The notes under the pieces are model-generated. The model was not told the origin of the DNA, ran no database searches, and was given only the letters and a program-made list of their open reading frames with translations. Position numbers and translations under genes: made by a program. DNA of 9,104 nucleotides from a virus (taxonomy: Monodnaviria > Loebvirae > Hofneiviricota > Faserviricetes > Tubulavirales): IMG/VR virus record IMGVR_UViG_2667527591_000001; one strand, 5' to 3'. Positions 1 through 1,074 of the stretch are shown piece after piece. How positions within the stretch are numbered: position 1 is the stretch's first letter; every line of letters starts with the position of its first letter.

Positions 1-1074
1 TTCCGCTTCCTCGACCACTCGCTCACTGCGTTCGGTCGCTGGGTCTGCGGCGAGCGGTGCCATCACACGCGCAACTGAAGCATTCTGCCTCTCTGTTCAT
101 CCGTCAGACCTGCCAGTCCGGCAGGCAGGTGCAGTCCATGGAAACAAAGCACGGATTAAGCTGCGGTGCACACTACAGGGGAGCACGCTGTCAGCCATCA
201 GTTTCATCAACAGGCAACACCATCGCCTGTACGCGTCGGGTTCTGCACAGCCAGTAAGCTGGTTGCCCATGTCAGCAAAGAGCATAAGTGCCCGAAGCAG
301 GCAGCAGAGCGTAAGTGCCCGGGACCGGTAATGGTGCCTTTCCGCTTCCTCGACCACTCGCTCACTGCGTTCGGTCGCTGGGTCTGCGGCGAGCGGTGCC
401 ATCACACGCGCAACTGAAGCATTCTGCCTCTCTGTTCATCCGTCAGACCTGCCAGTCCGGCAGGCAGGTGCAGTCCATGGAAACAAAGCACGGATTAAGC
501 TGCGGTGCACACTACAGGGGAGCACGCTGTCAGCCATCAGTTTCATCAACAGGCAACACCATCGCCTGTACGCGTCGGGTTCTGCACAGCCAGTAAGCTG
601 GTTGCCCATGTCAGCAAAGAGCATAAGTGCCCGAAGCAGGCAGCAGAGCGTAAGTGCCCGGGACCGGTAATGGTGCCTTTCCGCTTCCTCGACCACTCGC
701 TCACTGCGTTCGGTCGCTGGGTCTGCGGCGAGCGGTGCCATCACACGCGCAACTGAAGCATTCTGCCTCTCTGTTCATCCGTCAGACCTGCCAGTCCGGC
801 AGGCAGGTGCAGTCCATGGAAACAAAGCACGGATTAAGCTGCGGTGCACACTACAGGGGAGCACGCTGTCAGCCATCAGTTTCATCAACAGGCAACACCA
901 TCGCCTGTACGCGTCGGGTTCTGCACAGCCAGTAAGCTGGTTGCCCATGTCAGCAAAGAGCATAAGTGCCCGAAGCAGGCAGCAGAGCGTAAGTGCCCGG
1001 GGCCGGTAATGGTGCCTTTCCTCTTCCTCGACCACTCGCTCACTACGTTCGATCGCTGGGTCTGCGGCGAGCGG
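1..1074. repeat. Tandem direct repeat, 339-bp unit, three full copies (1-339, 340-678, 679-1017) plus a diverged partial fourth copy (1018-~1074)
   Basis: Seen directly: the string ttccgcttcctcgaccactcgctcactgcg recurs at 1, 340 and 679, and in variant form at 1018. Copies 1 and 2 appear identical; copy 3 differs by about one base near 1002; the partial copy has several substitutions and ends where the pI stop codon begins. Each unit contains a hairpin cctgcc-agtcc-ggcagg. Confidence 0.95.

Follow-up and report, generated by a model that had tools for sequence, protein, structure and literature searches.

What is the tandem array at the start of this filamentous phage genome, and could it serve the phage as an origin of replication? 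The sequence studied here (the window) is the whole 9,104-nt IMG/VR record IMGVR_UViG_2667527591_000001, which represents one genome unit of an uncultivated Escherichia coli inovirus. Its first 1,074 nt had been described, in an original prediction, as a near-perfect 339-bp array with three full copies and one partial copy next to gene I, which could be a multimerised minus-strand origin. Based on our comparisons, the array is probably a PriA-dependent minus-strand origin that has been tandemly amplified and recently homogenised. The proposal of a multimerised origin would hold for the first 57 of the 339 nt in each unit, which are homologous to the primosome assembly site (PAS) of ColE1-type plasmids and lie on the presumed packaged strand. 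It does not extend to the other 282 nt (X), which are unrelated to a PAS, non-coding and optional.

The array was recovered by Tandem Repeats Finder over window 1-1074 with a 339-bp period, 3.2 copies, 99% matches and no indels, and BLAST unit mapping placed three full units and a terminal 57-nt partial unit on the minus strand. Unit 2 repeats unit 1 exactly, and unit 3 departs from both at a single base (gggaccgg to ggggccgg near 1000). The stop of gene I, encoding the Zot-family assembly ATPase (1088-2299, minus strand; Pfam Zot), is 13 nt from the array, on its upstream side with respect to the coding strand. In the relatives L001, L002, L010 and L017, the window end abuts the window start (...GAAGATA directly followed by TTCCGCTTCC), therefore the array occupies the spacer between gene I and gene IV on the circular map, with the secretin gene IV (7858-9066, minus strand; Pfam Secretin) as its downstream flank. 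Reading along the minus strand, the order is the gene I stop, 13 nt, three PAS-X units, a further PAS, a 38-nt leader (9067-9104) and the gene IV start at 9066.

All four PAS copies are on the minus strand. Copy 1 (1-57), on the gene IV side, reads CCGCTCGCCGCA-GACC-...-GGTC-GAGGAAGCGGAA and was delimited by pattern match, homology to ColE1 and the stem covariation of the family. Copies 2 (340-396) and 3 (679-735), placed by unit mapping and pattern match, have the same sequence as copy 1, and copy 4 (1018-1074), on the gene I side, occupies the position of the single copy of relatives and has three private changes. Between them are X copies 1 (58-339) and 2 (397-678), which are the same, and X copy 3 (736-1017), which differs from them by one substitution.

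Judged by alignment, the first 57 nt of each unit are truly homologous to the n'-pas region of ColE1 and pBR322. Nucleotides 1-58 of the unit matched ColE1 (NC_001371) 1364-1308 with 47/58 identities (E 6e-10), and the global identity of the 57-nt PAS was 79.3% to ColE1 and 82.8% to the pBR322-type sequence, compared with the 75-80% over the first ~60 nt that had been anticipated. It was higher still for natural plasmids, with values of 94.7% for a ColE1-like plasmid of Salmonella and 96.5% for RepL plasmids of 2.75 kb, which occur in the same E. coli strains as the prophage. Nucleotides 1-70 of the unit (57-70 nt aligned) found matches of 80-97% in 3,392 plasmid records, and the element pattern had 3 exact matches in the window but none in 200 window shuffles.

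The position of the homologue in ColE1 could also be compared with the mapped site. RNAI of ColE1 is at 645-749 on the minus strand, therefore RNAII is on the plus strand and ori is near 1200, a position that assumes an RNAII length of ~555 nt and agrees with the ColE1 sequence context. With a dnaA box at 1271-1279, the PAS homologue (1308-1364) is 108-164 nt downstream of ori, close to the predicted ~150 bp. The PriA-dependent n'-pas/ssiA site of ColE1 is located downstream of ori and close to the dnaA box (PMC3167613, PMC3640518, PMC8246471). The homologue agrees with this published layout, which places the phage PAS in the ColE1-type n'-pas class by homology to an experimentally mapped region ~110-165 nt downstream of ori.

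Among the plasmids, the PAS of the 2751-bp RepL plasmid pAST20_3 (L007, 2472-2529) is 96.5% identical to the phage PAS and is a possible source or sink of exchange with the phage, and the PAS is also found on many cryptic plasmids of 1.5-2.3 kb. At equivalent spacing ColE1, and presumably pBR322, has CTCCTTACGC and the phage has GCACTTACGC, hence the homology between the phage and plasmid sites may be longer than 57 nt. Vector contamination, which the original prediction had already doubted, is excluded by the natural prophages (parts of the phage are present in 106 of 5,426 complete E. coli genomes) and by the PAS being nearer to natural plasmids than to pBR322.

The PAS is present at the same site in relatives, with or without X. 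Among those with 97-99% identity in the gene I protein, many carry a single 57-nt PAS and no X in a 110-nt spacer between gene I and gene IV (L009, L020, L022-24 and about 15 further genomes). PAS-X-PAS is found in L017, L018 and L082, and PAS-X-PAS-X-PAS in L001, L002, L010, L081 and L083, such that related complete genomes and metagenome contigs have 0, 1 or 2 copies of X; the array of the window is larger than any of these and comprises four PAS and three X copies. A second inovirus lineage, which carries traX and an IS110-family transposase and is 67-69% identical to the window phage in DNA and 50-58% in protein, has the array at the same position with 91-94% identity and 3-4 PAS copies. 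Its copies differ among themselves (PAS 83-100%, X 88-95%), with all arms intact. The position of the PAS is therefore conserved between lineages at 50-58% protein identity, with centres down to 83% and the arms unchanged.

Beyond these lineages, a two-arm pattern scan of IMG/VR returned 52 viral contigs. In Rep_trans-type inoviruses of Vibrio parahaemolyticus, the PAS element is 4-100 nt after zot on the coding strand (just past the zot region at L041 364-419 and similar sites), and in inovirus L028 it directly follows the secretin gene. The isolated Vibrio phage V5 (L078, OL512807), which belongs to the Rep_trans-type Vibrio parahaemolyticus group, has its PAS at 5424-5479 on the deposited coding strand. 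In P2-like prophages of ~36 kb (15 IMG/VR contigs, for example L031 2547-2612), a 66-nt version is located 0.4-3.4 kb from gene A; it has two covarying stems, one nested in the other, and GGAAGCGG is always on the gene-A-sense strand. This version had no BLAST match among the deposited P2-family phage records, P2 and 186 included; weak matches were found in Sodalis phage phiSG1 and a 174-kb Klebsiella phage. The PAS arms were not found in M13 (Ff), IKe, fs2, phiX174 or G4, nor in VfO3K6, although this is also a Vibrio parahaemolyticus inovirus, therefore the PAS is not universal in inoviruses. No report of such a PriA-type site in inoviruses was found in the searchable literature.

Comparison of the family members defined the structure of the element. 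Read 5' to 3' on the active strand, every member starts with CCGCTCGCCGC and finishes with GAGGAAGCGGAA, and the closing helix CCGCT/AGCGG pairs in 98.7% of cells. The inner stem changes in sequence with compensation: GACC/GGTC in the window, GATC/GATC in the first copy of L001-type arrays, GCCC/GGGC in the Salmonella plasmid, GTTTAT/ATAAAC in L009 and GTCTGT/ACAGAC elsewhere in the family, with GCCCTGA/TCAGGGC and GCCCGGA/TCCGGGC in P2-like prophages and GAAGTGAT/ATCGCTTC and GATG/CATC in the Vibrio type. The mean Watson-Crick length of the inner stem was 4.38, compared to 1.15 in shuffles that underwent the same register optimisation (maximum 1.67 of 2000). In a stem-anchored alignment, the covariation score was 0.250 against 0.109, a value reached by 0 of 500 shuffles, with slid registers at 0.104 or below, and all 7 pairs of the inner stem showed changes on both sides. 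The element thus has a conserved hairpin, as expected of a PriA-dependent signal, and the PAS has been described as a fork-like hairpin (PMC5778457). The combination of invariant unpaired arms and a covarying stem fits a single-stranded DNA structure recognised by a protein. It also provides a sequence-and-structure definition of the ColE1-type PAS, which could serve to annotate minus- or lagging-strand origins in plasmids and phages.

These patterns bear on the idea that the PAS is a neutral relic with no function in the phage, left behind by past exchange with plasmids of the ColE1 type and then multiplied through replication slippage or unequal crossing-over. Such a relic could explain the 96.5% similar copies on small plasmids of the same strains, the variable copy number and the changes gathering in the gene I-proximal copy of the window. 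In that copy, AAGCGG has become AAGAGG in an otherwise nearly invariant arm, together with two further changes, so this copy may be decaying, which would fit a relaxation of selection after redundant copies had arisen. However, a relic would be expected to lose invariant arms and compensatory stem changes, and these are retained here while the centres diverge. The same position and orientation are also kept down to 50% protein identity and in the Vibrio phages. We therefore regard a neutral relic as very unlikely.

If the PAS is a functional origin, it should be on the strand that becomes single-stranded. In ColE1, the strand reading GAGGAAGCGGAA is the RNAII-sense strand, which is displaced and becomes the lagging-strand template, and it corresponds to the minus strand of the window. 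The minus strand is the coding strand for all structural genes and, as with the viral strands of M13 and V5, it is rich in T (T 30.5%, A 21.7%). In characterised inoviruses, the packaged strand always has the polarity of the genes. From gene polarity, base composition and general inovirus biology, the PAS is thus presumed to be on the packaged strand, which would be single-stranded on entry. GGAAGCGG is on this strand, and the same orientation was found in V5, the other inoviruses and 15/15 P2-like contigs; in every occurrence, the GGAAGCGG strand is the Rep-sense strand.

As the sense strand of the spacer is transcribed between two co-oriented genes, the PAS could instead act as RNA, for example as a structured spacer in the mRNA of gene I and gene IV that affects translational coupling or the processing or stability of the transcript. 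An RNA would benefit just as much from a conserved structure with compensatory changes. However, the homologous element of plasmids has been defined by experiment as a site in single-stranded DNA (PMC3167613, PMC8246471), the PAS of the Vibrio phages is located after the last assembly gene rather than between genes, and no U-tract terminator is present. The invariant unpaired arms shared by plasmids, inoviruses and P2-like phages also argue for one common host protein partner. For these reasons, a role as RNA is considered quite unlikely.

We return to a PriA-dependent minus-strand origin, for which the following mechanism can be proposed. The P2-A-type Rep would release a single-stranded circle by rolling-circle replication, or the viral strand would enter at infection, and the DNA would be coated by single-stranded DNA-binding protein. 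Despite this coat, the PAS would fold into its closing helix CCGCT/AGCGG, invariant internal-loop arms and variable stem-loop. PriA could then bind the folded PAS, with PriB, DnaT, DnaB/DnaC and DnaG completing the primosome, and the complementary strand would be primed. One PAS copy would be sufficient, as in most relatives. The extra minus origins would be harmless, unlike extra plus origins, and may speed the conversion to the replicative form.

The Rep itself (5122-7221, minus strand) belongs to the rolling-circle initiators of the P2 gene-A family (Pfam Phage_GPA, E 9e-49) and is ~30% identical to the fs2, VFJ and CTXphi RstA-type proteins, and it should yield single-stranded circles that need a complementary-strand origin. 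A phiX174/P2-like Rep had been predicted and linked to PriA priming; the P2-like assignment is borne out, but the link is unneeded, as the element is also present in Rep_trans-type inoviruses.

In the standard account, filamentous phages prime the complementary strand with host RNA polymerase, and phiX174 does so with the PriA primosome. As far as homology can indicate, the element is a member of the ColE1-type family of PriA sites that is repeated in tandem, and an inovirus is an unexpected host replicon for it. If the element does act as such a site, the phiX174/ColE1 priming route would be the one taken by a group of naturally occurring inoviruses of E. coli and Vibrio, as well as by some P2-like prophages, and the establishment of these phages would be tied to the replication-restart machinery of the host (PriA, PriB, DnaT).

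How could the array have arisen? The ancestral state would be a single PAS in the 110-nt spacer between gene I and gene IV. A PAS-X-PAS cassette could have been born by tandem duplication in a related traX-carrying inovirus, as the array of this lineage has a partial X tail at its start and a partial X head at its end, which fits an origin by duplication there. The cassette would then have been imported into the window lineage by recombination within PAS copies. In the window lineage, there is a PAS at both ends of the array, which fits entry of PAS-X-PAS through recombination in the resident PAS. Judging from their sequences, X has been exchanged between the two inovirus lineages. The array would later have been expanded and homogenised by unequal crossing-over or gene conversion, and all three window units are of the gene I-proximal type of two-unit arrays. 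The homogeneity of the copies had been taken as a sign of recent amplification, and the near-identity in the window, compared with differences of 3-4% between copies in relatives, fits this as well as gene conversion.

The same near-identity would be expected if the copy number of the window were an assembly artefact, caused by a repeat loop being traversed too often or a contig being broken within the repeat, an option that had also been raised originally. The first base of the window coincides with the array edge, and copies 1 and 2 match at 100%, so that, from the window alone, the count of 3.2 is possibly inflated. Four IMG/VR contigs of the phage (L015, L016, L019, L021) stop 3 nt past gene I, at the PAS or array, and short-read assemblies appear to break at the PAS-X repeat. 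On the other hand, X copy 3 differs from X copies 1 and 2, and the terminal PAS from the other PAS copies, which makes a minimum of two X copies genuine. Independent complete genomes (chromosomes and plasmids) and metagenome contigs carry arrays of 1.2, 2.2 and ~3.5 units. The array is therefore real as a class, with a polymorphic copy number. An artefact, which would bear on the count and not on the nature of the element, is given only a slight chance.

The X segment is more difficult to explain. It could be a selected element, for example a site bound by a protein, an accessory signal for replication or packaging, or a region that regulates gene IV, with the PAS providing mainly the recombination homology for an X cassette. 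Variation within the unit is lowest in the X core (181-280), at 2-5 variable alleles per 20 nt compared with 4-7 in the PAS. Between lineages that share 67-69% identity in their genes, the identity of the PAS-X module is 91-94%. The X tail contains the direct repeat AGAGC(A/G)TAAGTGCCCG twice, 27 nt apart. In addition, TAAGTGC is exactly 28 nt before every PAS, including the gene IV-side copy and the single copy of relatives. In the window, this heptamer (285-291, 312-318 and their repeats, and 9077-9083) has 7 matches against 0.9 expected, confined to the X tails and one site in the leader of gene IV, where it again precedes the first PAS by exactly 28 nt.

However, most close relatives lack X and have kept the PAS alone, and the PAS is conserved in unrelated phages independently of X. 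No promoter or terminator consensus was found in the array beyond chance (with no promoter-like sites in 1-1400), nor any Rfam match within the array at E up to 1, and neither X nor the whole unit folded better than shuffles. The one long open reading frame (ORF) on the minus strand of X, of 102-107 aa, is not conserved, as TGG has changed to the stop codon TGA in most copies. We therefore consider it unlikely, though less so than a role as RNA, that X is the selected element and the PAS its recombination homology.

Other functions of X were also considered. A coding repeat was excluded by substitutions spread over the codon positions (23/20/27), 1-nt indels between copies and the lack of a Pfam match. 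X as a plus origin was excluded by reasoning, as initiation and termination by Rep would resolve tandem plus origins, yet diverged arrays persist. A packaging hairpin is unlikely, because there is no long hairpin in X and a strong one elsewhere at 7709-7806. X was absent from 72,556 plasmids, except for two carrying the prophage, and from other E. coli DNA, 50,697 phage records and the species representatives of the Genome Taxonomy Database (GTDB), and the metagenome matches to X came only from the same phage. In three strains (2017.06.05CC, ZH48 and ZH49) there were 29-31 X matches per genome, which suggests ~10 phage copies per genome. X may be an accessory part of the origin region, a protein binder or a passenger.

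Several observations weigh against a PriA-dependent origin. The conserved core of X (181-280) is not accounted for by it, and the packaged strand is deduced from gene polarity and composition. As the PAS is in a transcribed spacer, it may have a role at the RNA level. Single PAS sequences, with z between -1.7 and +0.4, did not fold better than their shuffles; the GACC paired in the minimum-energy fold was the wrong one, where covariation selected the outer one. The covarying stem is only 1-2 bp in ColE1 and pBR322 themselves. The stem register was picked for each sequence among 3-4 offsets, and this choice was matched in the stem-length shuffles but not in the covariation controls. The precise limits of the PriA site mapped in ColE1 and pBR322 are assumed. 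Alignment of the unit to the phiX174 primosome assembly site, proposed originally beside that to ColE1/pBR322, gave nothing significant, with only chance 10-15-mers (E at least 1) against the phiX174 genome. Known PriA sites have little sequence in common, so that this mismatch is compatible with one functional class.

A broader and more tentative proposal is that the ColE1-type PAS is a widespread, portable lagging- or minus-strand origin cassette, built as two invariant arms around a freely evolving stem. It would be common to small plasmids and to phages with rolling-circle replication, namely the inoviruses of E. coli and Vibrio and the P2-like prophages. The PAS-X cassette would spread between inoviruses by PAS-flanked recombination and be amplified because extra origins, or X, win the intracellular competition between co-resident phage genomes, with X as a new accessory origin element. 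We regard this as possible but rather doubtful.

How does the array compare with known systems? The closest is the n'-pas of ColE1/pBR322 (ssiA, the factor Y/PriA site ~150 nt downstream of ori), with 79-83% identity to the phage PAS, or 95-97% for natural ColE1-like and RepL plasmids. It has the same invariant arms (CCGCTCGCCGC ... GAGGAAGCGGAA) and the same logic, in which the active strand is the one becoming single-stranded. It differs in being beside the RNAII origin and dnaA box, whereas the phage PAS is between genes I and IV, and in its inner stem of 1-2 bp compared with 4-6 bp in the phage. Also unlike ColE1, the phage has four tandem copies interleaved with a 282-nt segment that is absent from plasmids.

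The role proposed for the phage PAS, PriA entry on a packaged single-stranded circle, is that of the phiX174 primosome assembly site, a hairpin between genes F and G. By eye, the viral strand of both sites has GAAGCGG and a pairing of CCGCT with AGCGG. The microvirus phiX174 has one copy of its site, whereas the phage PAS is present in multiple copies. G4-type signals, which need only primase, are an alternative class of complementary-strand origin on single-stranded phage or plasmid DNA. Against G4, the unit gave only chance 10-mers, none of them in the G4 origin region itself, and neither the unit nor X had any similarity to the G4 complementary-strand origin, the M13 intergenic region or phiX174.

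Within the same virus family, the minus-strand origins of Ff and IKe, which are hairpins dependent on RNA polymerase, perform the same task, and by annotation the IKe minus origin is also just after the assembly genes on the viral strand. However, M13 and IKe lack the PAS arms, and the array has neither hairpin similarity to an Ff-type origin nor its -35 and -10 elements, with no promoter-like hexamers. The predicted host enzyme therefore differs, being the PriA primosome for the phage PAS and the sigma-70 holoenzyme for Ff and IKe. A precedent for an origin region amplified in tandem within a filamentous phage is offered by the f1/M13 defective-interfering miniphages with reiterated origins (literature of the late 1970s to early 1980s), which presumably gain a replicative advantage in the cell. 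These miniphages arose in the laboratory by deletion, and their repeats span the entire intergenic region, whereas the array is found in complete natural prophages, with diverged copies persisting in one lineage.

The rest of the genome is that of an inovirus. Pfam Phage_GPA, Phage_Coat_A, Zot and Secretin were all found on the minus strand, in agreement with the RefSeq annotation of near-identical prophages, and the other minus-strand genes include an ORF of gene V size, small coat genes, gene VI and the gene of a gene III-like adsorption protein that has Gly-rich repeats. No deposited phage was close at the DNA level, and a search of GTDB genomes with the gene I protein gave nothing usable. 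Near-identical prophages are present in E. coli chromosomes, between ydeP/ydeT and hipA in L001 and L010, a locus we take to be the dif region, with a tandem double prophage in L001.

On the minus strand at window 7709-7806 there is a 98-nt near-perfect hairpin (-40.2 kcal/mol, z -10.5) that contains a bulge of 6 nt and whose arms have inverted, dif-like XerC-arm motifs, GTGCGCA(C/T)AATG. This hairpin resembles the single-stranded attP of CTXphi-type phages. In related inoviruses, an IS110-family (RNA-guided) transposase next to Rep replaces this dif-like module (L009 11328-12293, L003 28145-29098, L004 28301-29254). The traX-type phage is found at differing chromosomal sites, namely yhbO|yraR and inside the srl operon, and its traX (F-pilin acetylase) is within the inovirus genome between gene I and the PAS-X array (L003 20816-21577, with equivalents in L004 and L011-L014).

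Repeats are also present elsewhere in the window. At window 7193-7227 and 7270-7458, the AT-rich region between Rep and a divergent 62-aa ORF has 16-nt repeats of TGCACAAATGCAATTG (2.2 copies), which together with this ORF look like an operator and an rstR-like repressor. At 3171-3422, 39/78-nt and 30-nt tandem repeats code for Gly/Ser/Pro-rich linkers of the gene III-like protein, and this is the most variable region among relatives.

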